Below, piece by piece: positions 5,115-45,132 of a stretch of DNA of 64,000 bases. The stretch is from a virus: IMG/VR virus record IMGVR_UViG_3300045988_095842; one strand, 5' to 3'. A program made the translations under genes and the position numbers. Each line of letters opens with the position of its first letter. Within the stretch, counting starts at the first letter, position 1. The notes beneath the pieces are model-generated. The model saw only the letters and a program-made list of their open reading frames with translations. It made no database searches and had not been told where the DNA came from.

Positions 5115-5138
5115 ACAATGCAGACGGAGACCATTTGT

Positions 5139-5786: not shown

Positions 5787-5862
5787 TTTGATTCCTCCAT
5801 AAAAGTTAATATATTTACAACTACTATCACCGTAGTGATCATTTCCGGTATTAAAAATACGC

Positions 5863-7230: not shown

Positions 7231-7308
7231 GAGCTCCTCCTTTAATAAAATGCCTTTTTCTCTCCCCACAAACAATATACCGCAGTGACAATTATATGTC
7301 AGCTATTT

Positions 7309-13217: not shown

Positions 13218-13569
13218 TTGCTTTTGCCTCCGCGCTCTTCTGCGAGTTTTCTTTTTTACTCTTTGTATTTGTACTCGCACTATGGAGCTGATATACTGCC
13301 GCCTCAATAAGGTTTGATAATTGGTCATCGCTCATGCTGATATGGAGATCATCAAGTGCCTCTCGTGCCACAGTCATAGCAAGTTCTTTCCGCTCAGCAC
13401 CAGATTTCTGCCAGAGCGTCTGCTGTGCCGCAAGGACCGCCTTGCCAACCTCATTCTGCGCAAGCTTCTGCTTCAGGGCTCTCGAAATCACCGGTACCAC
13501 ATACACAGCCAAAAGGCCGAAAATAAGCTTTACTGCAAGCTCTACAAGCTCATACGTCTGATTATTCAT
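13210..13569 (-). CDS. holin (LL-H family-like)
   Basis: An N-terminal TM segment (LAVKLIFGLLAVYVVPVI) plus an amphipathic tail. It sits directly upstream of the endolysin. Confidence 0.55.
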   Translation of the reverse strand: MNNQTYELVELAVKLIFGLLAVYVVPVISRALKQKLAQNEVGKAVLAAQQTLWQKSGAERKELAMTVAREALDDLHISMSDDQLSNLIEAAVYQLHSASTNTKSKKENSQKSAEAKANG

Positions 13570-13853
13570 CCTTCACCTCCAATTGAATCTTCCGCCTCGT
13601 TCGGGTCTGCCTCAATATCAAGATCCGCCTCGTCCGGCATTGTCTCTTCTTTTCTTTTTCTCTTATGCTTGCTCTCGTAAATCCTCCAGAGGATGCCGGC
13701 TTCCGCAGTCGCAAATGCAAAGTATCCTGTGACCAGGGCAGACGGTTCCGCGCCGACAAGAGCAAAAACTTTGAACGTCTCTACTACAAAAAGAATCGTC
13801 CCGATCCCCAGGAGGATCAGGACGACATCCGTAAACTTTATTCTGTTTTTCAT
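13566..13853 (-). CDS. small membrane protein (holin-like, 2-3 TM segments)
   Basis: Hydrophobic segments VVLILLGIGTILFVV and GYFAFATAEAGILW, with a charged tail. Confidence 0.5.
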   Translation of the reverse strand: MKNRIKFTDVVLILLGIGTILFVVETFKVFALVGAEPSALVTGYFAFATAEAGILWRIYESKHKRKRKEETMPDEADLDIEADPNEAEDSIGGEG

Positions 13854-14254
13854 TACACCACTCCAAGCTCCTTGCGCTTCCGTTCCCTGTCAAGATGCTT
13901 GGCCTCTTCGTCCGTTACTACCTCGAGCTTTCCACACTCGTTGTAACCTGTTTCGCAGTCGCCGTTTCCTCCAAGCTCTCTATACGGGGCATACAGGTAA
14001 TTCAGGTTGGTCTTTTCTCTCGTGGTGATTGCTCCGCGCTCAAGGATCTTGTCCGTAAGATACAGGATCTTGTCGTGCTCAAGGCCAAGGATCGCACGGC
14101 TCTGCGCACTCTGATTGGCCTCTTTCTTTTCATTTTTCTTGTCATGCCGCTGGATCAGGTATACGATCAGCCCGGTTCCACCGGAACCGACTATTCCTGT
14201 TACTACGGCTGTTGCTAGTGCTAGCACTTCTGGAGTCATCGTCCCTCCCCCCAT
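13853..14254 (-). CDS. membrane-anchored lysis-module protein
   Basis: N-terminal TM segment ALATAVVTGIVGSGGTGLIVYLI. Confidence 0.5.
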   Translation of the reverse strand: MGGGTMTPEVLALATAVVTGIVGSGGTGLIVYLIQRHDKKNEKKEANQSAQSRAILGLEHDKILYLTDKILERGAITTREKTNLNYLYAPYRELGGNGDCETGYNECGKLEVVTDEEAKHLDRERKRKELGVV

Positions 14255-14430
14255 TACTTTTCAAGTACAAAAAAGAGCGATGCAGGATCTGCAATTCTTT
14301 CCTGTAACGCTCCAACTGTCATCGTTTTGCAATCATAGTATGCTTCTATTCCAAAATCTACACATACTATTTTCTTTCCATTTTGGACGTTCGTAAGAAC
14401 GTCCGTTGATTTAATCTGTGTGACTTTCAA
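14254..14430 (-). CDS. small hypothetical protein (TTG start, 58 aa)
   Basis: A GGAGG RBS lies 7 nt before the TTG. The stop overlaps the next ATG (TAATG). Confidence 0.35.
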   Translation of the reverse strand: MKVTQIKSTDVLTNVQNGKKIVCVDFGIEAYYDCKTMTVGALQERIADPASLFFVLEK

Positions 14431-14475
14431 AGTACTGCCTCCTTTCTGGTCACAACTTTATAGTTTACAGTAATG

Positions 14476-15321
14476 TCATGCCGCATAGTAGCAGTAGAAC
14501 GTGCCAGTGACGGAGCCTTCCCCTCCAGATTCGCCAATGTTATTGGTGCACCTCAGATTCGTGACAGTCAATACTCCATTTGAGGAGTTATATGACATTG
14601 AGCATTCCACAGAGCTGTCTACTTTTGTACCTTTCATATATGTTTCCTGGTTCCCCCAATGGTTATCTGTTCTTTTGACGGATGTTGGAACAAAAGCAAA
14701 GTTTTCAATTGTGAAATCATGGAATCCAGGAATAGCTGCAGCTGAATATGTACCGTCCCCACCAGTTCCGATAGCAACTCTGTACAGCTTTTTGCTCGCA
14801 TACCCAGACTTATACGAAGCACTCTCTTCATTTACTCTTGCGTCCGCATCAGACATGCCTGCGTTATATGCCCCGTCTCCGGACACGTAGCCCTGCCCGC
14901 TGTGATAACCGGCCGGAATTGTGACATTTCCTTTTCCAGTCGTCTTGCCGGTCCACGCTCCATTATTCGGCATACTGCCAGCCACATTTTCAGCCGTCGC
15001 GGACGAAAACGTCTTCCCACTCAGGACGTCCGCTTCTGCTGCGTTCCCGGTGGGATTTCTAAAAGGGGTTACTGCTCCATTCTTGCCGTTCTTGTATCCC
15101 CATCTGCCGGAAGAATCCGTATCAAAGTACAGATCTCCAACCTTGAGCTCCAGCTTCTCCGCACGGTCTCCGAGAGTCTTCCCCATACGTGCATCAAGCA
15201 CATACCCGGCATCCGTTGTGGTTGCGTCATTCCGGACTCCATTTGCATCAAGCTTGCGCTTGAGTGCTGCCGCAATCGAATCATTGATCTTACTCAGCAT
15301 TGATATCGGTACTAAAGCCAT
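14476..15321 (-). CDS. tail fibre / receptor-binding protein
   Basis: 281 aa, G/S/T/N-rich, positioned after the baseplate J and XkdU-like genes. Confidence 0.55.
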   Translation of the reverse strand: MALVPISMLSKINDSIAAALKRKLDANGVRNDATTTDAGYVLDARMGKTLGDRAEKLELKVGDLYFDTDSSGRWGYKNGKNGAVTPFRNPTGNAAEADVLSGKTFSSATAENVAGSMPNNGAWTGKTTGKGNVTIPAGYHSGQGYVSGDGAYNAGMSDADARVNEESASYKSGYASKKLYRVAIGTGGDGTYSAAAIPGFHDFTIENFAFVPTSVKRTDNHWGNQETYMKGTKVDSSVECSMSYNSSNGVLTVTNLRCTNNIGESGGEGSVTGTFYCYYAA

Positions 15322-15324
15322 TGA

Positions 15325-15582
15325 TTACACCTTCCCTTCTGCAAATTTCGCAATCTCTGCATTCATTTCCGCCTCTGTCATCTCTACCGGCTTTGCGTTC
15401 TTAATCTTTTCATCTGTAGACTTTTCCAGATCCTGTACCTGGTTCAGCAGGTACCGGTCATTCTGGAGAAACGTCTGATAGTACCCATTTACAAAAGATG
15501 CCTCAACGTAGTCAGACTGCTTTACCTGTTCCACATGCGATACATTAAAATCCGGTTCTGCCGGGACACTAAATGCCGCCAT
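15325..15582 (-). CDS. hypothetical tail-associated protein
   Basis: 85 aa ORF between baseplate and fibre genes. Confidence 0.5.
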   Translation of the reverse strand: MAAFSVPAEPDFNVSHVEQVKQSDYVEASFVNGYYQTFLQNDRYLLNQVQDLEKSTDEKIKNAKPVEMTEAEMNAEIAKFAEGKV

Positions 15583-15596
15583 GCTTGCCCTCCTTT

Positions 15597-16802
15597 TCAG
15601 TAAACAATGTCAACAATGTCATCAATCTTGAACACCATCGGTGTTCCTGTTCTCTTCAGCTTTTTATCAAAGGTCTTAATGCAGACCAGATCACCATCAC
15701 TGTCCGCAAGGCCCATTTCTGTGATGTACAGGCCATTTGCAGTATCTTCCGGAATTTCTCCAAGATACTGATAGGTTTGCTCATCCAGCTTTGTTGCTGA
15801 AATTACTTCCGTGCGTGCTACTTCTTTTTTCAAAGCTGTCTCTTTCCCAGTCGGAATGTACTTCTTCCCATCATCTCCAAGCCCTGTGCCAAACACAAAG
15901 TACTTGATCTGCCAGGAATCGCTGCCAATCGCACGCATCTTCAGCATCTTCAGTTTTGCCTGATTCAGTAATACTGCATCCACTTCGTCCGGTGCCTCCG
16001 TTCCTTCTATCGGTCCCCACTGTATCGTGCCGTCAAATTTATACTTGCCGTCCCAAATGTTGTAGTGCTTATCCAGCGCGTCAAACCGATACCTTCCGTT
16101 GTACTGGATCCGCCCATTATGAAGGATATAAACATCCTTCTCCTGCGCCGCATACCGGATCGTTCCGTCATACTTGAAAAGGCCAGTGTACCGGTTATAG
16201 ATGTCATAAGAAATTTGCAGATTCCGGAAGTGCTCCCAGGGCTTTAACTCAATCCGGTCTCTGTAATTTGTCTCAAAAAACATCTTTACGCCACCAGGAC
16301 GGATTACCATTGGTTTGATCACGGTCGGATCAGGTATATCCGAAGGGATATCCTTGATATCAATCCGGAGAGATGCAGGACCGGCCTTCCCCCATGGCTC
16401 GCCGTTGTATATGGCTGTGATAGGATTTTCCTCGTAAGTGATGATTGACTCATCACCCCACAGAAGATGAAGACCCTTCATGATGTCCTCATACGTCCCG
16501 TATGCATTATTTTTCAGGATTTGAAAATAAAGGACATTCCGATAGGCCTCATCATCCAGCGCATCAATGTCCGTAATCTCAAGAAGCTTATAAGCCTCCA
16601 GACGAGTGATCCCTACGATATCGCCGATCATGTCCAGATTCTTTCCGGCTGCATACCGGATATCTGTTTTCTCCTTCAGATCAGCAAACACCGTTTCAAG
16701 GCCGGTAATCTGTTTTCCAACCGCATCTATGATCGCTGAAAGATTCGCCTTTCCCTGAAACTGGCACGGGAGCTCTTTTTTCCACTCTTCTACCAGCTTC
16801 AT
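15597..16802 (-). CDS. baseplate/tail protein (XkdU / DUF2313-like N-terminus)
   Basis: 401 aa. It overlaps the stop of the baseplate J-like gene. Confidence 0.5.
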   Translation of the reverse strand: MKLVEEWKKELPCQFQGKANLSAIIDAVGKQITGLETVFADLKEKTDIRYAAGKNLDMIGDIVGITRLEAYKLLEITDIDALDDEAYRNVLYFQILKNNAYGTYEDIMKGLHLLWGDESIITYEENPITAIYNGEPWGKAGPASLRIDIKDIPSDIPDPTVIKPMVIRPGGVKMFFETNYRDRIELKPWEHFRNLQISYDIYNRYTGLFKYDGTIRYAAQEKDVYILHNGRIQYNGRYRFDALDKHYNIWDGKYKFDGTIQWGPIEGTEAPDEVDAVLLNQAKLKMLKMRAIGSDSWQIKYFVFGTGLGDDGKKYIPTGKETALKKEVARTEVISATKLDEQTYQYLGEIPEDTANGLYITEMGLADSDGDLVCIKTFDKKLKRTGTPMVFKIDDIVDIVY

Positions 16803-18305: not shown

Positions 18306-19592
18306 TCAATTTTTTTGTTGCTCTCGCATTTTCAGCGATTGCCGGTACTGCTCAGCCGGTGCAATGTACGTAAAATCTGGTGTACCATCAAAATTCTCGT
18401 GCACCACCTTCTCGATCTCTTTAAGAGATACCCGGAAAAACTCTCGTCGCTGATTCACGAGATTCAGCTTTCTGTCCGCAAATGCATTGTGCAGCGCCGC
18501 CTCCAGCTTCGGTGCGTCCTTCGAAAAAATCATTGCATGGATATCGAAATCGAACGGAACAGATGCATCTCCGAGCTCATCCACACGATCTTCCGGAACA
18601 AGGCGTCTCGTCATACCAATCTTATAGACATTCTCACCGAACGCCCCAATATTGGAAATCACATATACATACCCGGCTTTCTGATTCGCCTCGCGGTAGT
18701 CCACATCCTTGAACTCCTTGTCAATCTTTTTAAGCTGATTTTCAAGTTCTTCCTTCTTTGCTGCCAAGGCTGCCTGTTCTTCCTGCGGTGCTTCTTTGAT
18801 TTGCATCTTGAGTTGCTTCAGAGCGTTTTGATAATGCTTCTGTTCTTTCTCCAGTTTCTTACGCTCTTCCTCAATTTCCCTGGCAAGCTTCTGCTCTTCA
18901 CGCAGTCTCGCTCTGGCCTCTTTCTGCTCTTCCTTCTCTTCTTGCTTCTTTTCCTGGTACTCAAAAGCAAGATACAGCTCTTCAAGCTTTAGCTGATAGT
19001 AATCGGAAGTAATGCGAATCGACATGATTTCTCCAAGCTTCGAGATAGCATCTCTGGATCTCTCAATTTTCTTTTCGCTTGCTTCCAGATTACTGTACCG
19101 CACATGCTCTATAGCATCGTCACACTCTGCATTGAAGGCACGAAGAAGCAACTTTTGCGTGTCGGCGACCATCTTCTTTCCTTTTCGCACATCACCATTG
19201 ACCGACCACGAAGCGATCCCGGTAACAGCAGACCCATCTCGTATCATGTCTTTCTGCTCAGCACGTATGCCAAGGAGTTTTGCTTTATACTCTTCAGAAT
19301 GCATAAACGGATAGTGCGGAGTATACAAGCCAAAACTCTGGAGAAGTACTTCGTCACGAGTTTCTACAAGCTCATCCTTGACTCCTTCCAGTTCTGCATT
19401 TTTAGCATCAATTTCGCTTTGTATTGCATTGCATGCATCCTTGAGCTTGTTGTACTGCGCAGTAGCCTTTTCAACTTCGCCATTTACTCTGGCAAGCTCT
19501 TCCTCAAGAGCAATAACCTTTTTGCCATCATCTGGCAAAAGCTCGCGCAAACGCTCAATTTCCTTCTTTTCTTTAAATCCGAACAGTGACAT
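18306..19592 (-). CDS. DUF4041 coiled-coil plus T5orf172 (MUG113, GIY-YIG-like) domain protein
   Basis: The C-terminus GYVYVISNIGAFGENVYKIGMTRRLVPEDRVDELGDASVPFDFDIHAMIF...EFF matches the T5orf172 pattern. The middle region is long and KE-rich. Confidence 0.75.
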   Translation of the reverse strand: MSLFGFKEKKEIERLRELLPDDGKKVIALEEELARVNGEVEKATAQYNKLKDACNAIQSEIDAKNAELEGVKDELVETRDEVLLQSFGLYTPHYPFMHSEEYKAKLLGIRAEQKDMIRDGSAVTGIASWSVNGDVRKGKKMVADTQKLLLRAFNAECDDAIEHVRYSNLEASEKKIERSRDAISKLGEIMSIRITSDYYQLKLEELYLAFEYQEKKQEEKEEQKEARARLREEQKLAREIEEERKKLEKEQKHYQNALKQLKMQIKEAPQEEQAALAAKKEELENQLKKIDKEFKDVDYREANQKAGYVYVISNIGAFGENVYKIGMTRRLVPEDRVDELGDASVPFDFDIHAMIFSKDAPKLEAALHNAFADRKLNLVNQRREFFRVSLKEIEKVVHENFDGTPDFTYIAPAEQYRQSLKMREQQKN

Positions 19593-34399: not shown

Positions 34400-34909
34400 T
34401 TAGTTTTCTCCGGATGCCTTTGCCGCAGCCGCTGCCGCTTCTGCGTTGTACAGAAGGACAGGAGCAATGCCATCCTCGGAAACACCAATAAATCTTCCTG
34501 CAATGGCGATATTGCCCGATTCTGCGTTCGTGAGCAGTCCTGCCTTATCTCCCGTTGCAATGACGTAGGGCTTGTCGTTGACGGCAATGGTTACAGTATC
34601 ATCTACTCTCGCCCATACCTTGCCGGTACGAAGAACAGAGAATGCCTCGCCCTTGTCAATCACAACGGCGCCCTTGTTGTCCATCTCGTGAGCCTTGCTT
34701 ACTACAATGCCCTCGATGAAGTCGGATGCCGCCGCTGGAACCTTCACACCGGTTCCAGCAGAAGTGCCGGCCGCAACTGCCATGCCGAACTTGATCTTTC
34801 CAGACTCAGCCTCAGAGACCCTGGTGTTGCACTCATAAGGGCTGATATCAAAAAGGCCGCCCGGAACTCCGGACGGCGTAGCGTAACCATATTTCATCTG
34901 TGCTGCCAT
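34400..34909 (-). CDS. capsid decoration/cement protein (DUF2190-like)
   Basis: 169 aa, located between the scaffold/protease and capsid genes. Confidence 0.5.
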   Translation of the reverse strand: MAAQMKYGYATPSGVPGGLFDISPYECNTRVSEAESGKIKFGMAVAAGTSAGTGVKVPAAASDFIEGIVVSKAHEMDNKGAVVIDKGEAFSVLRTGKVWARVDDTVTIAVNDKPYVIATGDKAGLLTNAESGNIAIAGRFIGVSEDGIAPVLLYNAEAAAAAAKASGEN

Positions 34910-36186
34910 TACTGATTACCTCCTTCTCTTGCAATCATTCTTTCTCTCGCTGCCTGTGCAGCAGTAAGTCCAATGGGGCGAGAATCTGCTGAATCGTGAT
35001 TCAGCTTTCCAGCCATCTGCATGCGCTGGTAGTTCACGTCCTTCTTTCCAGGAACCGAGTTTTCAACTGCATACTGGAATGCATAGTTGATATATCCCTT
35101 GGACTTTCCATCAAGACGAACGTTCGGATTAACCTTTTTGATAACTCTCTTCTTGATCTCAAGGTTTGAAAGATTATCAACATCGTCCAGATTCAGACGA
35201 TCCGCAATTCTGAGGATAGATACTCTCTCTCGGATTCTCTTATCTACAGAGTCCGCATTCATTGCCTCCTTGTCATCGGTGTCGTCATCTCCATCCTTGT
35301 TTTCCTTGGAAAGATCATTCTTTGCCTGGATCTCATCAATGGAATCCAGAAGTGTCTGAATATCCTTATCCTGCTCGTCAAGCTTCTTGGTTGCCTCTTC
35401 CAGAGTCTTCGGATCTTCATCCGCATCTTTCCTGTCTCTGCGATCTCTGACCATCTTGATCTTGTCTTCCGGAGTCTCAGGATTATCTCCATCCTTGTTT
35501 TCCTTCTGATCATCAAGGCCAGTCTGATCATCTCCGTCCTGCTCCTGCAGCCCCTTGATACCCTTTGCATACTCATCAGGGCTGATCGGCTCACCATCTT
35601 TTCGGGTGTGTCTCATTGCATGTCCTCCTTTTGCTAATGTGTTTGCGTCTCTATCTTTACCGTCGATGTTCAGACGGGCACTGTCTCCCGCCCTCGCTTC
35701 GGCGACTAAAGCCAAGTGATTGATGCGGATATTTCTCTGTATCGCATCGTAGTGTTCTCCCTGGTATTCTCCGGGCGTATTATCAATGTCGAGGTTGTAT
35801 CCAAGTGACAGTTCTTTCAGGCCGCTTTCCTTCATGCTGTCGACATCATGGATAACAATCTTTGCCCTCACTGACTCACCATCCTGATATCCAGGTTCCA
35901 GGATGGTTCCGATTTCCTCGTCCGTTACATTTTCCGTATTCACATATCCGGCATCGTGCGTCACAATCACAGGTTTTCCTGCATAGGAAGCCAGGGAATC
36001 CGGATTAAATACCTCATCCGGCGGTCTGAACTCTCTTCTGACGGATCCATCTGGATTGTGATACTCAAATATGCCAATCCTGGTCACGATCGGATGATCA
36101 ATCAGATATCCCTCTTTCGTGAAATAGGTCAGATCATTGGCATCCAACCGGATCACGTCCGTTCGGCGTAAATTCTTGATTTTCAT
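34909..36186 (-). CDS. prohead protease/scaffold protein (DUF2213-like) with an acidic coiled C-terminal half
   Basis: Contains LSLGYNLDIDNTPGEYQGEHYDAIQRNIRINHLALVAEARAG. A GGAGGAAAG RBS precedes the ATG at 36186. Confidence 0.6.
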   Translation of the reverse strand: MKIKNLRRTDVIRLDANDLTYFTKEGYLIDHPIVTRIGIFEYHNPDGSVRREFRPPDEVFNPDSLASYAGKPVIVTHDAGYVNTENVTDEEIGTILEPGYQDGESVRAKIVIHDVDSMKESGLKELSLGYNLDIDNTPGEYQGEHYDAIQRNIRINHLALVAEARAGDSARLNIDGKDRDANTLAKGGHAMRHTRKDGEPISPDEYAKGIKGLQEQDGDDQTGLDDQKENKDGDNPETPEDKIKMVRDRRDRKDADEDPKTLEEATKKLDEQDKDIQTLLDSIDEIQAKNDLSKENKDGDDDTDDKEAMNADSVDKRIRERVSILRIADRLNLDDVDNLSNLEIKKRVIKKVNPNVRLDGKSKGYINYAFQYAVENSVPGKKDVNYQRMQMAGKLNHDSADSRPIGLTAAQAARERMIAREGGNQ

Positions 36187-36210
36187 CTTTCCTCCATCAA
36201 AAATTGCAAC

Positions 36211-36252
36211 AAAAAAAGAGCCTGAACACATTTCTGTGTCTAAGCTCTTTTT
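36211..36252. terminator. hairpin terminator between the effector island and the scaffold gene
   Basis: Hairpin AGAGCCTGAACACA-TTTC-TGTGTCTAAGCTCT, flanked by A7 and T5. Confidence 0.45.
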
Positions 36253-36383
36253 CGAATGCCCTATGTACTCGTGGTACATGGGCGATAGCAGAAAACGCCA
36301 CTGACCACAAAGATCAGTGACGTTCCAGAACATCAACCTGCAACCTGGCAGGCGATTACCATATTAATTATCTCGGAATCTCG

Positions 36384-36698
36384 TTATTCGTCATCTTCGT
36401 CATCTTCATCTTCCATAGCTTCTCTTGCCGGCCAATTCGGATGCTCCTTCTCCAGCTTCTCCAGTTCTTCATCTGATGCTCGGAATTTCGCCCAGAAAGG
36501 ATTCTCATCGTCAAAAATCCATTTCTGTTCAGGAGATAATTTTTCCGGATAATCCGGCCAGTAATTAAAAATGGTCTTTTTGTCAAAGCTGAACAACATC
36601 GGGCCTAATTCCCGGTTAATATTTCCATCTTCGTCAATTTCAAATTCGTCTACCCACCAAACTTTATCTCCGTCGTGCTCTTTATAAAAATCTAACAT
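36384..36698 (-). CDS. small acidic protein (candidate immunity/neutraliser)
   Basis: 104 aa ending EDEDDEDDE, directly downstream of the 513-aa toxin-like ORF. Confidence 0.55.
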   Translation of the reverse strand: MLDFYKEHDGDKVWWVDEFEIDEDGNINRELGPMLFSFDKKTIFNYWPDYPEKLSPEQKWIFDDENPFWAKFRASDEELEKLEKEHPNWPAREAMEDEDDEDDE

Positions 36699-36758
36699 CT
36701 TCGTTCCCTCATCTCCCCTTGTCGCAGTACCAAAATGACAGATCTTTTTAGAGAATAA

Positions 36759-38300
36759 CTAAGCAATATGACCTTCTCCACTCTTCCTTTCTTGCCCTTC
36801 GGCAGTATTCAAGTATCCAAGCAATTTCCGAAACTCATCGCTTTTCCCTAAAGACTCAATATCTACCATTCTTACAGTTTCTTTGTGGTCCATCACTTTA
36901 TTTATTCTTTTGCTTTCACATTTGAAGCGCTCTCCTAATGTTTTCTTGATTGTGCCAAACTCTTTCATGGAATGCCATCCATTTTTATAAACTTTATGTT
37001 TATAAGTACCAGGTGACTGTAGCTCCAAATACATAGGCACTCCATTTTCTTTCTTAACGATCGCCGCATGTCTTCCTGCTGCTAATACATATTGCTTGCC
37101 TTCCTGCATTTTACCGAGCAATCGAATTGTTGCATCTTTTTCATTCCAATCCGACTCTTCTTGATACCCTTTTCCAAGTTTAAGGATAGCTTTGTTGTTA
37201 TCCACCATTGCAAAAATATATCTGGATGTTCCACCTCTGAAATCTCGAACTTCAAATCCTGCTTTATTTCCAACATAGGCAAATGCTGTAGATGCGCAAC
37301 TTCCTCCAGTTTTATCTCCTCCAGATATAAAATCTATGATTCCTTTCTCAGATATTGCGGACTCTCGCTTTTTTACCGGCCTGTTTTCAACCCCGTTCTC
37401 TTCCAGGTAGTGTCTAGCTATATTTTTCTGTTCCCAACCTTTACTCTCAGCATAACTGTTTGCAATCCCAAACGCCGCAGAATGATCGTTTCCGTGTGCC
37501 AGTTGTCCATCTTCATTTTTATATGCCCAATATCCATTTTCAAGTTTGACATAAGCATGTCCTTTATCGTCTGTATAGATTGAACCAACGGGTAGACCGC
37601 CTATATTCTGGCTTGCACTTGCATGAACATCATCAACATCTTTGCTTGAAGAAAACGCAGAATTCAGCTTTTCATTCTGATTGAGACCACTGTATTTACT
37701 TTCTGTAAAATCACTCTCGTGTCCGTTCTCGATTCGCGTCTGAACATCCTTGTTTGTGAACATGGACCCATTTTCAATACTCACCCATGTATCATCGTCC
37801 AATTTGATGAGATTCATCGGCTTGGCGCCACCACTCCATGCTACTGTATCGCCTTTTTCTGCCTTTTCGACATCCTCCGGAGTAATTTTCCCGCTTTTCA
37901 GCGATTTTGTAAATGCAGATACCTTCGCTTCCTGCTTCTTTTCAGGCTCTTCCTTCTTTGCCGGTTCACTTCCGCCTACAACCGTCTTGTTCTTGTCTCT
38001 CTGTTTGTTCTCTTTATATGCACCAACAAGGCCTGTGTATCCACCAGTTGGAGTTGTAAGACGATAGGCAGCACCTCCGCCCGCTCCAGAACCTCCTTTG
38101 ATCCCAGGTCTCCCAGAATACCCCCAGTTGCCGGATCCAGGGCCTCCGTCCAGACGTTCCATGTACCACTTCTGTGCAGCCACAAGATCAGATGAATCCC
38201 CTTTGAATTCATTTTCTGCATATACTGCATTCAGATCCAACGGCCATCCGTTCCGGTCATACCATTGTTTCTGCGCATCGACTAAATTCATTTCCATCAT
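36759..38300 (-). CDS. MuF-associated effector-like protein: GSGNWGYSGRPG linker motif plus a C-terminal Cys/His (papain-like?) domain
   Basis: 513 aa. The start overlaps the MuF stop (ATGA). The C-terminus contains GGSCASTAFAYVGN ... AAGRHAAIV ... YLELQS. Confidence 0.65.
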   Translation of the reverse strand: MMEMNLVDAQKQWYDRNGWPLDLNAVYAENEFKGDSSDLVAAQKWYMERLDGGPGSGNWGYSGRPGIKGGSGAGGGAAYRLTTPTGGYTGLVGAYKENKQRDKNKTVVGGSEPAKKEEPEKKQEAKVSAFTKSLKSGKITPEDVEKAEKGDTVAWSGGAKPMNLIKLDDDTWVSIENGSMFTNKDVQTRIENGHESDFTESKYSGLNQNEKLNSAFSSSKDVDDVHASASQNIGGLPVGSIYTDDKGHAYVKLENGYWAYKNEDGQLAHGNDHSAAFGIANSYAESKGWEQKNIARHYLEENGVENRPVKKRESAISEKGIIDFISGGDKTGGSCASTAFAYVGNKAGFEVRDFRGGTSRYIFAMVDNNKAILKLGKGYQEESDWNEKDATIRLLGKMQEGKQYVLAAGRHAAIVKKENGVPMYLELQSPGTYKHKVYKNGWHSMKEFGTIKKTLGERFKCESKRINKVMDHKETVRMVDIESLGKSDEFRKLLGYLNTAEGQERKSGEGHIA

Positions 38301-39241
38301 TTGCTCCTATCATCGTCCTCAAGCGGAAGATTAAGCGTGTCTTTATCAAAAACAGGGATTCCCACACATCTGCAATTAAAGTCTTCCCCAGGATTGCATC
38401 GTCTTCCGGTATTTACCCAATACCCTCCGTGCTTACTCTGCCTCCACTCCATAATCTCCGGAGGATTGTTGTATTCAAAAATCTTTCCGTCTAAGATCGA
38501 GTGCCCAGGTCGAACTCTCTCATCATCAGATGTGCTCCACTTATATCTTGAAACGCCGGCATCCTCATGTTCTTTTCTTGTTATGTTCGCGCTCAGCTTT
38601 GCCATCTGATCCCTTGCTATGAATTTGGCGTGCCGCTTGCTCATACTGTAGTTCTGCTGAATTAAAGAACCGATATCCGATGCTGAAAGTCCTTTGCTGT
38701 ATCCGTATTCAATGGTTTCCTTCATCTTTCCCAGCATGTCGTTCGGCACAGTTTTTATCAGATCGACATTATCGGAAACCCATTGTCTAAGTTCTTCCTC
38801 AAAGAAATCTCCGTTGTAATAGTCCTTTGAGAGATCCACGTTCAGGGTTTTCCTGACCATCCTTCTCCACTCTGAGATTTCTGTTTTCTTGGTGATCGCA
38901 CCAATTTTAAAAAGCTGAGTCAACAGGCGTTGTGTGGCGCCCATCGTGCTCAGCTTCTCATTGATTCTGTCAAAAAAATCCGTAATAAAGGCATGCAGAT
39001 CAAAAATGCCATCCATCCGGATCTCGTCATTTAACTGTCTCCGGTATTCCTCTTTCAGTCCAGGCATTTCTTTTTCAATCACAAGCTTCACGGCCTTCAT
39101 GTACTGATTGACTGCTCTGATATATTCTCTTTCAGCCGATTCCGGAAACCTGTGAGTGCTTTTTCCTACGATGCTTGAATTTGTGCCAAATTTGGCCTCC
39201 AGTTGACTTTTAACGCTTTCAGAGTAGAAATACTTCTGCAT
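38297..39241 (-). CDS. head morphogenesis protein, MuF / SPP1 gp7 family
   Basis: Contains ERVRPGHSILDGKIF...CNPGEDFNCRCVGIPV. Confidence 0.8.
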   Translation of the reverse strand: MQKYFYSESVKSQLEAKFGTNSSIVGKSTHRFPESAEREYIRAVNQYMKAVKLVIEKEMPGLKEEYRRQLNDEIRMDGIFDLHAFITDFFDRINEKLSTMGATQRLLTQLFKIGAITKKTEISEWRRMVRKTLNVDLSKDYYNGDFFEEELRQWVSDNVDLIKTVPNDMLGKMKETIEYGYSKGLSASDIGSLIQQNYSMSKRHAKFIARDQMAKLSANITRKEHEDAGVSRYKWSTSDDERVRPGHSILDGKIFEYNNPPEIMEWRQSKHGGYWVNTGRRCNPGEDFNCRCVGIPVFDKDTLNLPLEDDDRSK

Positions 39242-39332
39242 CAGCATACCCCCTCTAAATGAGCCAATTTGGAACAAAATAAAGGAGCCTTCATATCAAG
39301 GCTCCTGGACTCTATCTTTCAATAGCTGTTTT

Positions 39333-39770
39333 TTACTTGTTTTTGCAGCGGAGAAGTCTTGCTTCTACTCTTTTATACTTCTCCACTCGTGCCAGATCCT
39401 TATCTGTCGGATTCTGGATTCTGGAAAGATCCATGTTGTTATGAAGATCAGCCAGCTTCACATCGATTGCCAAAGGATTTGTGCAAACACGATCAATGTA
39501 GGAATCGTAGCTCTCACCTTTCCTGTGAGTCAGGCAATCAAGTGCATCCGCAATAGTGTTCCCGAACTCATTTCTGATGTCGTCATTGGTTACATTCGTA
39601 TCCTCAACCGTGTCGTGTAACAACGCAAGGATTTTTTCCTTTTCGTCCGTCACTTGCTTTGCGACCGCAATGGGATGCAGAATATAAGGACTTCCACCCT
39701 TGTCGTACTGTCCATCATGTGCTCTAACTGCCAACTGAAGTGCTTCATACTCTTTGTCGCCCATGGACAC
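39333..39770 (-). CDS. HD-domain small alarmone hydrolase (RelA/SpoT hydrolase-like, SAH)
   Basis: Contains AHDGQYDKGGSPYILHPIAVA ... LLHDTVEDTNVT ... FG..IADALDCLT. Confidence 0.75.
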   Translation of the reverse strand: MSMGDKEYEALQLAVRAHDGQYDKGGSPYILHPIAVAKQVTDEKEKILALLHDTVEDTNVTNDDIRNEFGNTIADALDCLTHRKGESYDSYIDRVCTNPLAIDVKLADLHNNMDLSRIQNPTDKDLARVEKYKRVEARLLRCKNK

Positions 39771-39782
39771 CTCCCTAGAAGA

Positions 39783-40019
39783 TTAAGAATTTGACGCCCG
39801 CTTCTCATCCAGCTCTTTCATGATTTTCTTGGCTTCACTCTCAGAAATATCCTGTGATGTGCACCACCCATTCATAACATCCTCTGCAAACCGGCTTTTT
39901 TGCCATTTCCCATTTCTACAATAAACTTCGCACACATCTACAAAGTCAAATTCCGGATCAATAGATGCTCTGTACAGATCAAACCCACAATCATCACATG
40001 TCTTGTAAATGTATTTCAT
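39783..40019 (-). CDS. small Cys-containing protein between the RSH and SAH genes
   Basis: 78 aa from MKYIYKTCDDCGF. A GGAGGTG RBS lies upstream. Confidence 0.5.
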   Translation of the reverse strand: MKYIYKTCDDCGFDLYRASIDPEFDFVDVCEVYCRNGKWQKSRFAEDVMNGWCTSQDISESEAKKIMKELDEKRASNS

Positions 40020-40078
40020 GCCATCACCTCCCTGCAGCACTATAATATCGCGCCATTTCTAACATGTCAGCTTATTTG

Positions 40079-40702
40079 TTACTTCTTCCATGTCTTTACA
40101 GAAGAAATATCTTTTGGCATATCAAGTGTTGCGGAGATATCCTTCATTTCCAATTTGAGTGCATTCTTCAGCCGTCCGCTACTTTCTCTTGACACATCAT
40201 ACATAGGATGGATCGTCTCCTTTACCTTCATCGACTGTTTGGAATGAATCTGAAGCTCAATCTGCTGTCCGGAAGGCGATACAGCACCAATGTGAACTCC
40301 TTTGTAATCTGAGCTCGGATTATTGTACTTATTATCAACCTCATTGACGGTGTATCCTTTCTTTTTAAGCTGATCCACCGTGCTTTTCGTTGCAGCCGCG
40401 ATATTGTTATGATCTGTGAGCTGTGTGTATCTGACCAGATCACCCATGCTCTTTACTATCTGTTCATCAGATTCATTCGCATGTTCAGGATCAGCTTTCT
40501 TTCTCGCAATCTTGCTTGCTATAGATTTTCCTGTCTTCACAGAAAAGTCAAGTCCATACATCTCTGAGCCGCTCTGTCCTGCAATTTCAATCATGTCCTT
40601 TGAAATCTGCGGTTCCTTTGCTCTGATTGCATCATATGCCGCCTGTGCTTCTTTGGATGCTCCAGGAATTGTATGATCCTTGGCTGCTGCGGTTGCTGTC
40701 AC
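40079..40702 (-). CDS. RelA/SpoT-homolog (RSH) synthetase-domain protein, toxSAS-like
   Basis: Contains FSVKTGKSIASKIARK ... GDLVRYT ... DYKGVHIGAV..GQQIELQIHS, which are the nucleotidyltransferase motifs of small alarmone synthetases. GTG start overlapping the Nudix stop. Confidence 0.65.
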   Translation of the reverse strand: MTATAAAKDHTIPGASKEAQAAYDAIRAKEPQISKDMIEIAGQSGSEMYGLDFSVKTGKSIASKIARKKADPEHANESDEQIVKSMGDLVRYTQLTDHNNIAAATKSTVDQLKKKGYTVNEVDNKYNNPSSDYKGVHIGAVSPSGQQIELQIHSKQSMKVKETIHPMYDVSRESSGRLKNALKLEMKDISATLDMPKDISSVKTWKK

Positions 40703-41199
40703 CGGCTGTTTTCCTTCTGCAACTGCTTTAGAAGCCTTGTCCCAGGTCTCCCAGAATGCCCCCAGTTACCGGAACCGGCTCCTCCATCCGCTCTTCCTTT
40801 GATGCAATCTTCCAGAAGGGAAATCGAATCATCAAATGCCGGATACAGAAGACCACCTCTCTGCTCCAGATCAGAAATATCGTTGAATCCGAAATACTCA
40901 TCCACCATTTCAGTTCCGTCTGCCTTTGGCTCTCCCTCAAAATCTGTGCAGAGAAAGACCATGGTAGGAAGATATTCTCCCTCAGGACTCTTCAAACATC
41001 CGATCATCTTCAGATCTTTTGGAGTAACACCAAATTCCTCTCTGGTCTCTCTGATCGCTGCATCCATTGGATCCTCATCTTTTTCAACATGTCCACCAGG
41101 ACCGCAGATCTCTCCGGTATCTGAACGAAGTCCGCACAGAAACTTCCCGTCTTTAACCACTAAAACTCCAACTCCATACGGAATATCGTTTTTGTTCAT
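40699..41199 (-). CDS. Nudix hydrolase with a C-terminal GSGNWGHSGRPG motif
   Basis: Perfect Nudix box G-HVEKD-E-DPMDAAI-RETREEFGV. Confidence 0.8.
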   Translation of the reverse strand: MNKNDIPYGVGVLVVKDGKFLCGLRSDTGEICGPGGHVEKDEDPMDAAIRETREEFGVTPKDLKMIGCLKSPEGEYLPTMVFLCTDFEGEPKADGTEMVDEYFGFNDISDLEQRGGLLYPAFDDSISLLEDCIKGRADGGAGSGNWGHSGRPGTRLLKQLQKENSR

Positions 41200-41272
41200 G
41201 CTCTGCCCTTTCTTTTTTGCATCAAAAAAGGACTCAGGCTTTCGCCCAAGTCCTCTCAAAATCTAAATATCT

Positions 41273-41509
41273 TTATACTCCCATCAATTCGGAGTACTTC
41301 ATATCTGCAATGCTTTCTGCAATTTTGCATTTCTCAGAAATATCATCGATAGCATTTCCGGATTCGTCCACCAGCTCATCAGCAGAAATCATGAAGCTTT
41401 CCTCACGAATATGGAACCAATCCACCTTACTGACATCCTTCAGGTCTTCTTTTGTCTTGTGAAAATTGTCCCATATAAACTTTAACTGCTTTTCCGACAG
41501 GTCTTTCAT
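41273..41509 (-). CDS. small acidic protein downstream of the portal (candidate immunity/antitoxin)
   Basis: 78 aa. The start overlaps the portal stop. Confidence 0.5.
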   Translation of the reverse strand: MKDLSEKQLKFIWDNFHKTKEDLKDVSKVDWFHIREESFMISADELVDESGNAIDDISEKCKIAESIADMKYSELMGV

Positions 41510-43356
41510 TACTCATCCTCCGCCCATAAGTCAATCGTAGTCACGATATTTCCTGCATTGCTTAGAACAATGCGGTTTTTGCCTTTCTGGAAGCATGTAA
41601 CATCTTTATGCTTACTATTTCCTGGATACATGGAATCCGGATTTTCGAGTGAATCTTTCAGATCTTCCGGTGTTATATTCCTTGATTTCATCCGGTAGCC
41701 GGCATGTGCACTTACTTCCTTCACCGTAACGCCATTCTGTGCTACCGTTCCCTTTACTGCTTTTGTGAACTCCCTTGCCGCTTTGTAATCTTTTTGTGAT
41801 GACTGTCCGTTATGAGGGCCAGCAGCGTTCTGATTTCCATATGGCGCCCCGTCCACATTCATCATACCATCTTGCTGTAAATTGTCAGCGCTTTCCTGCG
41901 CATTTTCTTCACCCTGCAGATCACTGATCTTGTTCAGCTCAGCCTGTTGCTTGCGAAGATCAAAGGCTTCATCCGGAATTTCGAGATTATCATTTTCAAC
42001 AATCCCCTGGATCTGATACTCGTTGGAATCAGCAAGACCCTTACGGACTTCGGACGGATCCAACGCCTGCATATCCACATAAATCTGTGCCGTAGAAGCC
42101 TTTGTCTGCTCTGTTCCAGCTTTAATGCTGTCCACATTCGCCTGTTCTTCCTCGGAAAGCTGTTTCAGCGGTTTGAATTTCACCTCATAATCAGGAATAT
42201 CTACCTTCTTTTTGGCCTCTATCTCTTTTAAAACAGCCCTGATGACCTTTTCGGCTGCACCATGGTACGAATTCGCCTGAATTCTGTTCAATAACTGGAA
42301 ATAATTATCTCTGTCATTGTCGCCGGTTGAATCTTCTCCAGCCGGATCCTTTCCAAAGAGAATTGTCTGAGGAATGTCCGTGACAGCGGAAAGCATATTG
42401 CAAGTACGGTCGATCAGGTCGGATGCTCCGGACATCGATGCATTGATATACTGGTAATCCTCTCCATCATTATCAATCGCCATGGAATTGATGATATTCC
42501 GTGCCATATCGATTACCTGTAATCTCTGGATTACCTTGTCTTCTCCTTCCTCAGTTGCGAGAAGCTGAGAAAGGTTTTTCATCTTATATACGCCGAGAAC
42601 AGAACGCTCCAATAGTTTTGTGCCGTCATGATGTGACGTAACGGTCTCTCTAAGGGCCTCTCTGATCTTCATATAGACAGGAATACCCCAATGCTTGTAA
42701 ATCACGCTGTTGGCGCTCTCAGGCACTCTTCCGTTGCGGAATACAAGACACCTTGAGTAGTGAACGCGGAAAGATCCATACTGCGAATACACGTCATAAA
42801 ACTCAGGATCTCCAAATTTCCGTTCTCTGTCTTCGCGGTCGATATCATGAAAGTAGCTAAAGTCCAATGTATCTGCCTGAACAATCGGTCTTTCGAACGT
42901 AATCAACTCTTCGATGCTTTTTACATTTTTCCAATTCAAAGGCTCATCAAGGCCTCTTCCATCATCCACAAGCATGACCACCAGAGCCCCGCCGTAAAGT
43001 CTGCTCCACTTTTCCGCAGTAGCCAGTGTATCCGTAAAATCCAGCTTACTAAGCTTCTTCAGAACTTCTTTTTCAAGCTCATCACCCAGGTCAGAAAGAT
43101 CCAGGCCTTTTGCGATAGCATCCTCTGCCGGCCGATCAATGATTTTTGCGAACAGACCATTTCCGATATACAGTGACGATAGCTTCGCATCCGAAGAAAT
43201 TGCATCTGCACTATATTCCCATGCGGTAGAATTATCCTTCATGGTTCCGACTTTGGTCAGCATGTTCATGTATCCGTCACTGCGATACTCGCTGACAGCC
43301 TGATTATATCGGCTGATTTCCTCTATCCGCTGAAGCGGATTGATTTGTACGCCCAT
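41509..43356 (-). CDS. portal protein (DUF1073-like) with a C-terminal DUF4258-like toxin-type extension
   Basis: The N-terminus YMNMLTKVGTMKDNS...LYIGNGLFAKIIDRPAEDA is portal-like. The last ~110 aa contain SAHAGYRMKSRNITPEDLKDSL...NRIVLSNAGNIVTTI. Confidence 0.7.
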   Translation of the reverse strand: MGVQINPLQRIEEISRYNQAVSEYRSDGYMNMLTKVGTMKDNSTAWEYSADAISSDAKLSSLYIGNGLFAKIIDRPAEDAIAKGLDLSDLGDELEKEVLKKLSKLDFTDTLATAEKWSRLYGGALVVMLVDDGRGLDEPLNWKNVKSIEELITFERPIVQADTLDFSYFHDIDREDRERKFGDPEFYDVYSQYGSFRVHYSRCLVFRNGRVPESANSVIYKHWGIPVYMKIREALRETVTSHHDGTKLLERSVLGVYKMKNLSQLLATEEGEDKVIQRLQVIDMARNIINSMAIDNDGEDYQYINASMSGASDLIDRTCNMLSAVTDIPQTILFGKDPAGEDSTGDNDRDNYFQLLNRIQANSYHGAAEKVIRAVLKEIEAKKKVDIPDYEVKFKPLKQLSEEEQANVDSIKAGTEQTKASTAQIYVDMQALDPSEVRKGLADSNEYQIQGIVENDNLEIPDEAFDLRKQQAELNKISDLQGEENAQESADNLQQDGMMNVDGAPYGNQNAAGPHNGQSSQKDYKAAREFTKAVKGTVAQNGVTVKEVSAHAGYRMKSRNITPEDLKDSLENPDSMYPGNSKHKDVTCFQKGKNRIVLSNAGNIVTTIDLWAEDE

Positions 43357-43706
43357 TACAGATAACTCCTTCCATATCTTTTCATAAATGCTTCTCTGGC
43401 CGGATCTGAGTCTCCGTGTTCGCCTGATCTATCTTTGTAATACTGCTTTTCCCAGGCGAGTTGCCCGATCATCTTTGACATTGCCTCAGCCATGCTGTTT
43501 CCGTGAATGATCAGTGTGCCGTTCTTTTTATTTCCATTCTTTGGAATATAACCCATGTTGTGACAGGCATTTGTCACAGGGATCACCAGACCATCCTCAT
43601 CTGCTTTCTCGCGATTGATTCCAAAAATTAAATGATGTACTGCCTCAGAAGGACGGCCCGTAAAAGCACACACGTCCATATAATCTGTCACTATGCTCTT
43701 TTTCAT
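43356..43706 (-). CDS. conserved phage protein, possible His-Me/HNH-type nuclease
   Basis: Contains CAFTGRPSEAVHHLIFGINREKADEDGLVIPVTNACHN. It lies between terL and the portal. Confidence 0.4.
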   Translation of the reverse strand: MKKSIVTDYMDVCAFTGRPSEAVHHLIFGINREKADEDGLVIPVTNACHNMGYIPKNGNKKNGTLIIHGNSMAEAMSKMIGQLAWEKQYYKDRSGEHGDSDPAREAFMKRYGRSYL

Positions 43707-43720
43707 TCCGTCCCTCTTTC

Positions 43721-45132
43721 CTATAGCATCGAATCTATGTTGAACATTCCATAGTTTGCCAGCTCATCAAATGCGGATGACGTAGCATCCACCATGTCCT
43801 TAAACTTTGAATCCGGAAAACTCTCAAGCTGTGAGAAGTAATCGTCATTCCATTCTCCCTGCACAACATCAAAGAACCCATGCTGCCATTGCGCAGCTAC
43901 AGGCGTTGCCCGGAACGTCTTATCTCCTGTCTCTGTCCGTGCAGAAACATCAAATCCGGCAAGTTCAGACACAAAAAAAGCCGCCTGACTCTTTCCGGCT
44001 TGTCCGGGGTCCTGCGGAATTCTGACTTTCACATATCCATATGATGCTCTATCCGAAATTGCTGTGTTTTTAATCAGCGATAATACTTCTCCTGCAGCAA
44101 GCCTCATGTTTATTACATCAAGGATTGCGTATCTGTTATTTTTCAACACCGCCATGAGAACGCCTGCTGTATATGCAGGATCTCCGTTCTCATCCTCTGA
44201 AGTAGCCGCCAGATCCCATCCACGACACATCGCAATAATGTCGTCCTTGCGGATCTGTTCCTTTTGAATCAGCTTGACCTGTCCCCTCTGGAACATTAAC
44301 CCTGCATGGTTCCGGATCTTCCAGTTTCCATTCAGAAGGCGTTCTCTCTCTACCATCGGAAGGTTGAGAAGGTTCGTCATATACTGAGGATTCGTCCTCA
44401 GCAGTTCTTTATTGTCCTGGACAGAAGAAGGTATGAATGTAACTGATTTTGCGACAAACGGAAGAAGATCCTCTGTCACTCCATCTTCCCTTGCATACAG
44501 GATTGCATCGTCTTTATTATCAAACCAGTGAATTACGCCCTTTAACCGGACCATCCACCGGATTACTCCAGCTCTTTCTTTAATCGGATATCCGGAATCC
44601 TGATCTATCCACCATGAAATAAATTTCGCCACCCAGGAATCAGAATCCGGATTGCATGTTGCCCTGATATACGGCTGAACACCACATATAGAACGGTTTC
44701 TGGACAGCATATAGAAGAACTGATACTCGCTGAAGTGACATAACTCATCAAACTCGATCAGACATATCTGAGATCCCTGCCATTGCTCACAATCTTCATT
44801 CCTGGACAGATGAGCGAATGTAATCGATGCTCCAGACTGAAATGACCAATGCATCTTCGGTGTCTTTCCGGAATGCGCTCCCTTAACAAAGGGATATATT
44901 TCTCTTGCAGAGTCCCAAAGACCTCCAGGAGCCGTAATCTGTGTATAGGCGTGACGCAGGATCAGCACATTGAATTTTGGATTATCAATATGCCTTAACG
45001 GTTCAAGAAGCTCTGCGAACGTCTTCCCGCCGGTCAGCCGCCCGCGGCGCCGCCATATACCACAATGTCTGCACTGGAAGACAAAAACGCTTCCTGCGGA
45101 CCTGGCTGCGGAGCAAATACCGTGGACATTTG
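43721..45132 (-). CDS. terL: terminase large subunit, interrupted by an apparent -1 frame change in the Walker A region
   Basis: Frame A (45132->45034): MSTVFAPQPGPQEAFLSSSADIVVYGGAAGG*. Frame B continues LTGGKTFAELLEPLRHIDNPKFNVLILRH... into ORF 43721..44968. Confidence 0.7.

Follow-up and report, generated by a model that had tools for sequence, protein, structure and literature searches.

Why would a phage place a Nudix hydrolase, a RelA/SpoT homologue (RSH) synthetase and an HD-domain hydrolase between its portal and MuF genes, among the genes that build its head? This question is raised by a 64,000-nt stretch of viral DNA (IMG/VR record IMGVR_UViG_3300045988_095842), referred to here over its whole length as the window. 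An initial annotation had read the three genes as an unusual set of unfused alarmone enzymes, accompanied by two small open reading frames (ORFs) and inserted between portal and MuF in this particular genome. All five ORFs were found with the coordinates and motifs that it had listed, on the minus strand between portal and MuF, but comparisons with related phages lead to a different account of what these genes are. We read the locus as a toxin–immunity cassette in the head operon of a temperate gut phage, in which the native toxin would be a Nudix–junction motif–spacer–RSH protein that a deletion has uncoupled from its carrier in the window, and we put the probability of this reading at about 0.8. 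The predicted working unit is the toxin, the small ORF that follows it and an Aph1-type hydrolase.

Nudix and RSH as parts of one gene

The Nudix and RSH ORFs overlap by 4 nt in the window and are, literally, unfused, with the RSH ORF in the −1 frame relative to the Nudix ORF. The end of the Nudix ORF reads ...GGAGSGNWGHSGRPG-TRLLKQLQKENSR*, where TRLLKQLQKENSR represents 13 out-of-frame residues, and the RSH frame stays open upstream of its GTG start at 40702, reading ETWDKASKAVAEGKQPVT as it does in intact genes. The closest RSH homologue (P0001, 86% identical) has ETWDKASKAVAEGKQPVT too, preceded by ~59 extra residues (MRGGSGGGGGSKMTNQ...YASNK), and the contig that encodes it (L001) holds one open frame, ...RADGGAGSGNWGHSGRPG-MRGGSGGGGGS...NK-ETWDKASK..., which runs through linker, spacer and RSH. 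In two IMG/VR contigs (L005 and L006) there is a single ORF, Nudix – GGPGSGNWGHSGRPGMRGGSGGGGGS – helical spacer – RSH, which in L006 spans 4617–5987 (456 aa) and has both NUDIX and RelA_SpoT matches. The window RSH protein is 99–100% identical to the corresponding part of L005/L006 (100% to L005), the Nudix ORF and the N-terminal portion of the 456-aa ORF share 95% identity, and the DNA flanks of the window are 91–98% identical to L006 (blastn). The fusion also extends to more distant relatives. Two contigs of metagenome-assembled genomes (MAGs) with RSH domains 66–68% identical to ours (L016 and L017) encode Nudix–linker(–linker)–small domain–spacer–RSH proteins of 528 and 623 residues, and, at 60% identity, the order Nudix–linker–RSH is seen in P0024 (433 aa).

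Compared with its near-identical relatives, the window lacks 178 nt. Direct repeats of 9–11 nt, GAGACCTGG(GA), flank the missing segment; the window has retained a single copy (GAGACCTGGGA at 40740–40750, minus strand), whereas the relatives have two copies 178 nt apart. The copies in L001 stand at positions 47 and 225 (distance 178), and the blastn segments shared with L006 overlap on window 40740-40750. A loss of this length (178 mod 3 = 1) puts the two halves in different frames, and the repeat copy that remains is read as GRPG with the Nudix and as ETWD with the RSH. What the deletion took away is the spacer together with the last part of the junction motif; the 100% identity of the RSH protein to that of L005 indicates that this happened recently. 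On these comparisons, Nudix and RSH are two fragments of one gene, broken in the window by a frame-shifting deletion, and the idea of an unfused trio applies to this allele rather than to the gene as its relatives carry it.

Could the two ORFs still be read as one protein? A programmed −1 ribosomal frameshift would rejoin them, and the geometry is suitable, with the RSH in the −1 frame and the two frames overlapping over 67 nt (40765-40699). However, no X XXY YYZ slippery heptamer occurs in this overlap, which was made by the deletion and is not conserved; in relatives the fusion lies in a single frame, so that no frameshift is called for. A rejoined product would, moreover, still be without the GGS tail and the ~59-aa spacer. 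We rejected this candidate and give it next to no chance. A second possibility is that the 178-nt gap is an artefact of assembly or sequencing and that the phage in the sample carries the intact fusion. The deletion allele is known from metagenome assembly only, and the gene is intact in three independent near-identical contigs (L001, L005, L006). An exact scan for a 23-nt pattern in metagenome and viral contigs returned L005/L006 only and no other deletion allele, and a scan of genome contigs for close relatives returned two MAG contigs only. Against an artefact, the truncated product is on record on two contigs, the final k-mer of 119 (taken from the contig name) is far longer than the 9–11-nt repeat, so that a de Bruijn collapse is not expected, and replication slippage is an ordinary cause of deletions between direct repeats this short. 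An artefact is therefore, in our view, quite unlikely.

The Nudix half was examined for a role of its own. Its ORF, which likely starts at the ATG at 41199, scored 53.4 bits against PF00293 (cut-off 21.1), and the Nudix box that had been described as perfect is indeed intact (G-HVEKD-E-DPMDAAI-RETREEFGV, for the pattern GX5EX7REUXEEXGU). Similarity to NCBIfam and PDB entries is generic, at the level of MutT/MTH1/RppH. Assignment to a specific Nudix subfamily, which might have named a substrate, was tried and dropped, as no equivalog-level subfamily was reached. According to the initial annotation, Nudix, RSH and HD would be separate enzymes that are not fused and jointly adjust host (p)ppGpp, (p)ppApp or another nucleotide signal, with the Nudix degrading an alarmone. 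The three ORFs are separate in the window, Nudix and RSH are linked in several lineages, and some Nudix enzymes degrade (p)ppGpp, all of which would suit such an arrangement. We nonetheless consider it improbable: Nudix and RSH form one ORF in near-identical and more distant relatives, their separation here is the work of the frame-shifting deletion, and the domain fits no specific subfamily. The two domains also occur apart, with Nudix on portals that have no RSH (Faecalibacterium phage FP_Brigit, L002 and L008; PMC9503650) and RSH without Nudix in P0002-4, P0026 and P0072. Because the Nudix also sits on RSH-less portals, nothing specific points to alarmones as its target, and its distribution is that of a general head-cargo domain.

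Toxin domain, likely product and predicted immunity genes

The RSH ORF scored below the Pfam RelA_SpoT cut-off (20.4 bits against 27). Its fold is nonetheless that of an RSH synthetase, as had been proposed from its motifs. It matched SaEAS (PDB 8vx3) at E 1e-11 (phmmer), the C-terminal domain of XopAD at E 2e-20 and, at E 3e-22, the last 180 residues of a PHROG family annotated as 'head morphogenesis'. An AlphaFold model built from 17 homologues had a mean predicted local distance difference test score (pLDDT) of 93.6, and all of the 50 best Foldseek matches to this model in the PDB were RSH synthetase domains, headed by SaEAS 8vx3 (template modelling (TM) score 0.76-0.81, E ~1e-12), with Tas1 (6ox6_A, E 2e-5) among the matches. 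The catalytic motifs are invariant in the 17 homologues (D88/E149/Q151/H153). From sequence and model together, we are confident in assigning the ORF to the RelA/SpoT-synthetase fold and to the Apk1/Tas1/SaEAS toxin clade. A HMMER search of 1.84 billion representatives returned 2,640 relatives of the domain (1,212 at E ≤ 1e-10).

The HD protein, for which a hydrolase fold had likewise been proposed, matched HD_4 at E 5.8e-10 (Pfam) and, over its full length, the solved structure of Aph1 (7smg, '(p)ppApp hydrolase'; E 2e-33), its best solved relative. Its catalytic pair H52-D53 aligns with H53-D54 of Aph1. Six residues (D24, R96, D116, R119, K133, Y134) set (p)ppApp hydrolases apart from (p)ppGpp hydrolases (Ahmad et al. 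2023, PMC10083569), and all six have their counterpart in the HD protein (D23, R94, D114, R117, K131, Y132). This strong homology identifies the HD protein as a predicted Aph1-type (p)ppApp 3'-pyrophosphohydrolase, that is, an enzymatic immunity protein.

What the toxin makes is less certain than what its neighbour would cleave. In Apk2, the three synthetase motifs are RYT (syn2), GxN (syn3) and YH (syn4) (PMC12226406), as against AVR, SxH and IR in (p)ppGpp enzymes; the RSH ORF has RYT (in GDLVRYT), G-x-H (in YKGVH) and I-H (in ELQIHS), respectively. Chiefly because of the neighbouring Aph1, the product is most likely (p)ppApp. The alternatives are that the RSH pyrophosphorylates the tRNA 3'-CCA end, as enzymes of the FaRel2/CapRel type do, or that it makes (p)ppGpp or both alarmones in the manner of SaEAS/VpEAS. 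The syn3 G-x-H retains the His of guanosine-type enzymes, CapRel is among the fold matches of the model, and the nearest solved structure, SaEAS, makes both alarmones while some members of the clade make only (p)ppGpp (PMC12691689). Dual specificity is thus possible, given the activity of SaEAS, as is some other specificity. On the other side stand the complete Aph1 signature of the adjacent hydrolase, which gives (p)ppApp specificity in tested enzymes, the Apk2-like syn2 RYT and syn4 His, and the distance of the CapRel match (7ztb, E 2e-4, TM about 0.5), set against an E of 1e-12 for members of the Apk1/EAS clade. Searches of the RSH ORF gave no PADLOC match and no match to a toxin–antitoxin (TA) family, and a CapRel-like defence-system identity was rejected; on these searches the ORF did not fall into the toxic small alarmone synthetase subfamilies of defence or TA systems (CapRel, FaRel2, PhRel). 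We regard a product other than (p)ppApp as unlikely overall, if still a serious contender.

An ORF of 72–83 aa stands between the toxin and the HD gene in all relatives examined (L001, L002-L004, L006, L017, L020). These small ORFs diverge fast, and the one in the window has no similarity to that of L002 though the toxins are 56% identical. Its position is that of IapK/Tis1, and from this position it is probably a candidate toxin-binding immunity protein. The AlphaFold model of the window ORF reached a pLDDT of 72 from four sequences only, and its best Foldseek match had an E of 1.1, with 6ox6 chain B absent among the matches listed. A Zn-ribbon reading of its cysteines was discarded because P0023 keeps only some of them. 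Ahead of the small ORF lies a promoter-like site, and behind the HD gene a terminator-like hairpin. The −35 hexamer of the former is kept in L001, where the rest of the intergenic region has diverged, and promoter-like matches in the region do not exceed shuffles in count. As pattern matches, the two sites may fit an independent expression of the immunity pair, for example in a lysogen.

The core of this arrangement is not new, and the impression that a three-enzyme set is unusual did not hold. In published Apk2 modules, a (p)ppApp synthetase toxin is followed by the binding immunity protein IapK/Tis1 and then by the (p)ppApp hydrolase Aph1; protection is partial with one of the two immunity genes and full with both, and such modules belong to MuF polymorphic toxins of Bacteroides caccae, Streptococcus pneumoniae, Mannheimia and Pasteurella prophages (PMC10083569, PMC12226406). 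The window shares with them an RSH toxin of the Tas1/Apk clade, the order toxin, small ORF and Aph1-type HD hydrolase with its (p)ppApp signature, and the setting in a portal/MuF head module of a temperate phage. The link that the initial annotation had drawn to MuF-fused RelA_SpoT toxins and to neutralisation by small alarmone hydrolases (SAHs) is borne out in this sense, with an Apk-clade RSH and an Aph1-type HD protein. Unlike in Apk2, the window RSH ORF has no N-terminal MuF (its intact relatives have Nudix, joined via GSGNWGHxGRPG), the cassette lies upstream of a separate, toxin-less MuF, syn3 and syn4 are GxH and IH and not GxN and YH, similarity of the small ORF to Tis1/IapK is not detectable, and the fusion is broken by a deletion. 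As the defining MuF fusion is absent, the window toxin is not a strict member of Apk2.

Carriers, junction motif and cargo arrays

Pfam scans of the top long hits among the RSH relatives revealed several carriers for the same toxin domain. It is joined to Phage_portal_3 portals (P0026, P0029, P0032, P0057), to a portal of a different family (Phage_portal; P0054), to portal–Nudix (P0073), to MuF (P0072, and P0049, which is MuF-like by sequence motif only), to Nudix (P0024) or to a short leader (P0002–4, P0025, P0027). The joint is almost always (D/E)GGxGSGNWGHxGRPGxxGGS. Because relatives attach the same domain to portal, portal–Nudix, MuF or leader via the same motif, the toxin is most likely virion-internal cargo. 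RelA/SpoT, Nudix, ADP-ribosyltransferase and BECR domains fused to MuF or portal have been predicted by comparative genomics to be packaged in the head and injected (Iyer et al. 2017 PMC5512222; 2022 PMC9503650). Like these polyvalent or virion-packaged effectors, which include NudE-like Nudix proteins and carry enzymatic domains on MuF or portal or among head genes, the RSH domain is fused to portal or MuF in other phages and encoded among head genes. The same surveys contain no Nudix–RSH fusion, no junction motif and no leader-plus-motif cargo arrays (PMC5512222, PMC9503650). The domain also shares its RSH sub-clade with Tas1/Apk1, a type VI secretion system effector of Pseudomonas aeruginosa, and with SaEAS, VpEAS and XopAD-fused EAS (PMC12691689; PDB 6ox6, 8vx3), toxins that are likewise mounted on interchangeable N-terminal delivery modules. 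In contrast to those toxins, the carrier here is a phage head component or leader and not PAAR/Rhs, a Sec signal, a type III or type VII secretion module or DUF4157. Portal and Nudix carriers were not found among the N-terminal modules listed in the searched text of PMC12691689.

What the initial annotation had called a packaging-linker-like motif is a widely conserved junction motif, with 34 distinct instances across the loci that we collected, to which a role in packaging may be attributed. The copy on the window Nudix ORF is the only one of the 34 without the xxGGS tail; a second copy occurs in the window at about 38138, in the ORF after MuF. Its place in the protein varies with the carrier: residues ~20–58 in free-standing cargo, ~150–180 after Nudix, and also after portal domains. 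In open frames of L010/L011 the motif stands at ~337, and by this position only it may lie behind a MuF domain. No mention of the motif was found in the literature searched. Several side observations concern motif-bearing proteins. The Nudix–RSH fusion of L017 (4759-6630) carries two junction motifs, GSGFFGHEGRPG and GSGNWGHVGRPG, which delimit a Lys/Asn-rich segment and a small beta-rich domain and make the protein look like a polyprotein. Within 5097-14400 of L010, six open frames bear the motif, one of them twice. A less common second motif, DDxDW(I/F)T(I/S)xGxH(V/I)x(I/L)....GG, is found in some cargo proteins including portal–RSH fusions (L002 7973-9055 and 14131-15375; P0026, P0027, P0079; P0006/7/11/14/15). 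In L002, three ADP-ribosyltransferase (ADPrib_exo_Tox) cargo genes follow MuF at 12690-16631, with small ORFs between them.

Cargo in the window is not confined to the alarmone module. The ORF after MuF, which overlaps MuF by 4 nt (ATGA), consists of a ~55-aa leader, then GGPGSGNWGYSGRPGIKGGSG, then a C-terminal domain that is seen on MuF toxins elsewhere and matches the C-terminal part of phrog_4728 'head morphogenesis'; the DUF7675 ORF may be the immunity protein of this second cargo gene. At the portal, the window matches L006 at 96% down to 41849, after which the remainder of the portal and the next small ORF are unmatched. Either side of this swap (window 41509-41848 and 41273-41509; L006 3629-4660) the two are 96–97% identical. 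The window portal ends (~110 aa) in ...DGAPYGNQNAAGPHNG and a weak DUF4258/BECR-like domain (DUF4258 E 1e-3 to 5e-3, below cut-off), and the L006 portal ends in ...LDGGKGSGNFNHVGRPGKRGGS and a different ~230-aa domain, followed by an 81-aa ORF; the replacement in L006 begins at a copy of the junction motif. The portal C-terminal domain and the small ORF behind it look like a swapped toxin/immunity-like cassette. The acidic 78-aa ORF, which gave no family match in Pfam, PHROG or NCBIfam, co-varies with the portal C-terminal domain, kept beside the same domain in L017 and replaced with it in L006. It is a candidate immunity partner of that domain and would thus stand outside the alarmone module.

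The two motif copies in the window (40741-40790 and 38100-38150) are identical at 44 of 73 DNA positions, mostly in the motif, and share an exact 18-nt run, ATTCTGGGAGACCTGGGA, which contains the microhomology of the deletion. This run is a possible substrate for recombination between cargo genes. Polymorphic toxins have junction motifs of their own, such as VENN in the CdiA family. By analogy, the motif described here behaves like a polymorphic-toxin junction, that is, as a point of cassette exchange, because the portal-end swap starts at the motif and the two copies share an 18-nt run of DNA; it may also be a site of protein loading or cutting. Only tentatively, and against our own leaning, can it be suggested that the motif, by itself or behind a short helical leader, marks an as yet undescribed class of phage 'cargo islands', serving in general as their tag for addressing and processing and also as a DNA recombination joint by which cargo is swapped between portal, MuF, Nudix and free-standing carriers. 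Were this so, the stretch from portal to prohead protease could hold as many as six genes for toxins or enzymes, whose products would enter the capsid and be cleaved at the tag, Nudix–tag–Apk would be a two-enzyme polyprotein, and the window would show a cargo toxin becoming a cytoplasmic TA module, or leaving orphan immunity genes, through a deletion at the joint.

Working model, phage context and implications

How might such a cassette work? In our model, the native toxin of ~456 aa would comprise Nudix, junction motif, helical spacer and an RSH pyrophosphokinase of the Apk1/Tas1/SaEAS clade. By homology, the RSH would move pyrophosphate from ATP to the 3'-OH of ATP or ADP, giving (p)ppApp, draining ATP and stopping growth. 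The small, fast-evolving protein would, judging by its position only, bind the toxin, and the Aph1-type hydrolase would turn (p)ppApp back into ATP or ADP; lysogen and kin could be protected by the two together. Intact toxin would be made late, enter the capsid by way of the junction motif and carrier context, and be delivered with the DNA to act in the next host, or on competitors after lysis, with the Nudix as a co-delivered second, independent effector. In the window, one of two outcomes may be expected. The RSH could be translated from the GTG at 40702, which overlaps the stop of the Nudix stub and has AAGGA 9 nt upstream, by coupling to that stop; this would yield a cytoplasmic TA module like those of toxic small alarmone synthetases (toxSASs), with two antidotes. 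Alternatively the RSH would be silent, and the phage would keep immunity genes without the weapon. The toxin is uncoupled from its carrier under either outcome. If the 207-aa ORF is translated, the locus would resemble the toxSAS–SAH pair FaRel-ATfaRel (PMC7229694), in which a free-standing small RSH toxin lies beside an HD hydrolase that degrades its product. It differs from that pair in its origin by truncation of a phage cargo gene, its place in a late structural operon, its extra small ORF and its membership of the Apk1/EAS clade, not FaRel.

Several points weigh against the toxin–immunity account and set its limits. Virion packaging, most likely as it is, and a possible role of the motif in it are read from fusion partners and gene position only. 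The syn3 G-x-H and syn4 IH differ from those of Apk2, which makes the nucleotide product uncertain. No similarity of the small ORF to Tis1/IapK was detected by PDB sequence search or Foldseek. Lastly, the deletion has been seen in one metagenome-assembled contig (ENA ERZ27229686 k119_9331), which is 64,684 bp long and of which the window makes up nearly the whole.

Genes for a tyrosine integrase, for a major capsid protein and for a DUF3383 protein that is sheath-like identify the window as a temperate tailed phage, with a tail that is likely contractile. The minus strand carries every gene of the region (Table 1). Among relatives, the nearest hosts seen are Lachnospiraceae MAGs, and among cultured phages Faecalibacterium phage FP_Brigit comes closest in its Nudix domain. 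When 36000–44000 was compared with 50,697 phage records by megablast, nothing matched. Genes inserted between portal and MuF, first taken as special to this genome, are conserved across the phage lineage, and the order toxin, small ORF, HD_4 gene and MuF is kept in L002-L004, L006, L017 and L020.

Table 1 Features of the head-gene region of the window, by descending position
Feature	Position	Strand	Match or remark
Large terminase	43721–44968	minus	
116-aa ORF	43356–43706	minus	
Portal, 615 aa	41509..43356	minus	Phage_portal_3 E 3e-72
Acidic 78-aa ORF	41273..41509	minus	
Nudix ORF	40699..41199 (ATG) or ..41259 (TTG)	minus	PF00293
Junction motif GSGNWGHSGRPG	40741..40776	minus	consensus (D/E)GGxGSGNWGHxGRPGxxGGS
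RSH ORF, 207 aa	40079..40702 (GTG); frame open from 40765	minus	
Promoter-like site CTGACA-17-TATTAT	40042..40070	minus	between RSH stop and small ORF; consensus match
Small Cys-containing ORF	39783..40019 (78 aa) or ..40040 (GTG, 85 aa)	minus	
HD-domain ORF	39333..39770	minus	HD_4
Terminator-like hairpin, 9-bp stem then TTATTTTGTT	39283..39306	minus	between HD gene and MuF
MuF head-morphogenesis protein, toxin-less	38297..39277	minus	Phage_Mu_F E 1e-18; phrog_324 E 2e-53
Second cargo ORF, 513 aa	36759..38300	minus	phrog_7104 E 3e-34
DUF7675 ORF	36384..36698	minus	
DUF2213 head protease/scaffold	34909–36336	minus	

Elsewhere in the window, a 428-aa protein with DUF4041 and T5orf172/MUG113 (GIY-YIG-like) domains is encoded among the tail genes (18306-19592, minus strand) and looks like an inserted accessory gene. 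A 349-aa protein (6226-7275, minus strand) contains an LPD29 domain ('large polyvalent protein-associated domain 29') and is a further link of this phage to the polyvalent-effector repertoire. With regard to hosts, the phage contig L017 (CAVAUJ010000008.1) shows close synteny both to the window and to L016, a Lachnospiraceae MAG contig; L017 was binned into a MAG of Succinivibrio sp. (Proteobacteria), a placement that is probably a binning error and not the real host.

The core of the locus (toxin, small ORF, Aph1 and phage head module) has already been described. Compared with the literature that we searched, what is new is the use of Nudix and portal(–Nudix) as carriers, the location of the cassette ahead of a separate MuF, a conserved junction motif along with multi-gene cargo arrays, and a natural short-repeat deletion allele that uncouples the toxin from its carrier. 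Published work on phage-borne (p)ppApp synthetase toxins covers MuF fusions only. The loci compared here present the toxin and its two immunity genes as a mobile cassette whose carrier can be portal, portal–Nudix, Nudix, MuF or no more than a leader, and the conserved junction motif gives a concrete, testable point from which to approach capsid entry and processing of such proteins. For annotation, they carry a warning that a 'Nudix' and a 'RelA/SpoT' gene found side by side in a phage head module may be halves of a single gene. The 178-nt deletion, together with the intact near-identical relatives, offers a natural comparison between a carrier-linked and a carrier-less toxin, and it would represent one simple route from polymorphic-toxin domains to toxSAS-like TA pairs or to orphan immunity genes.

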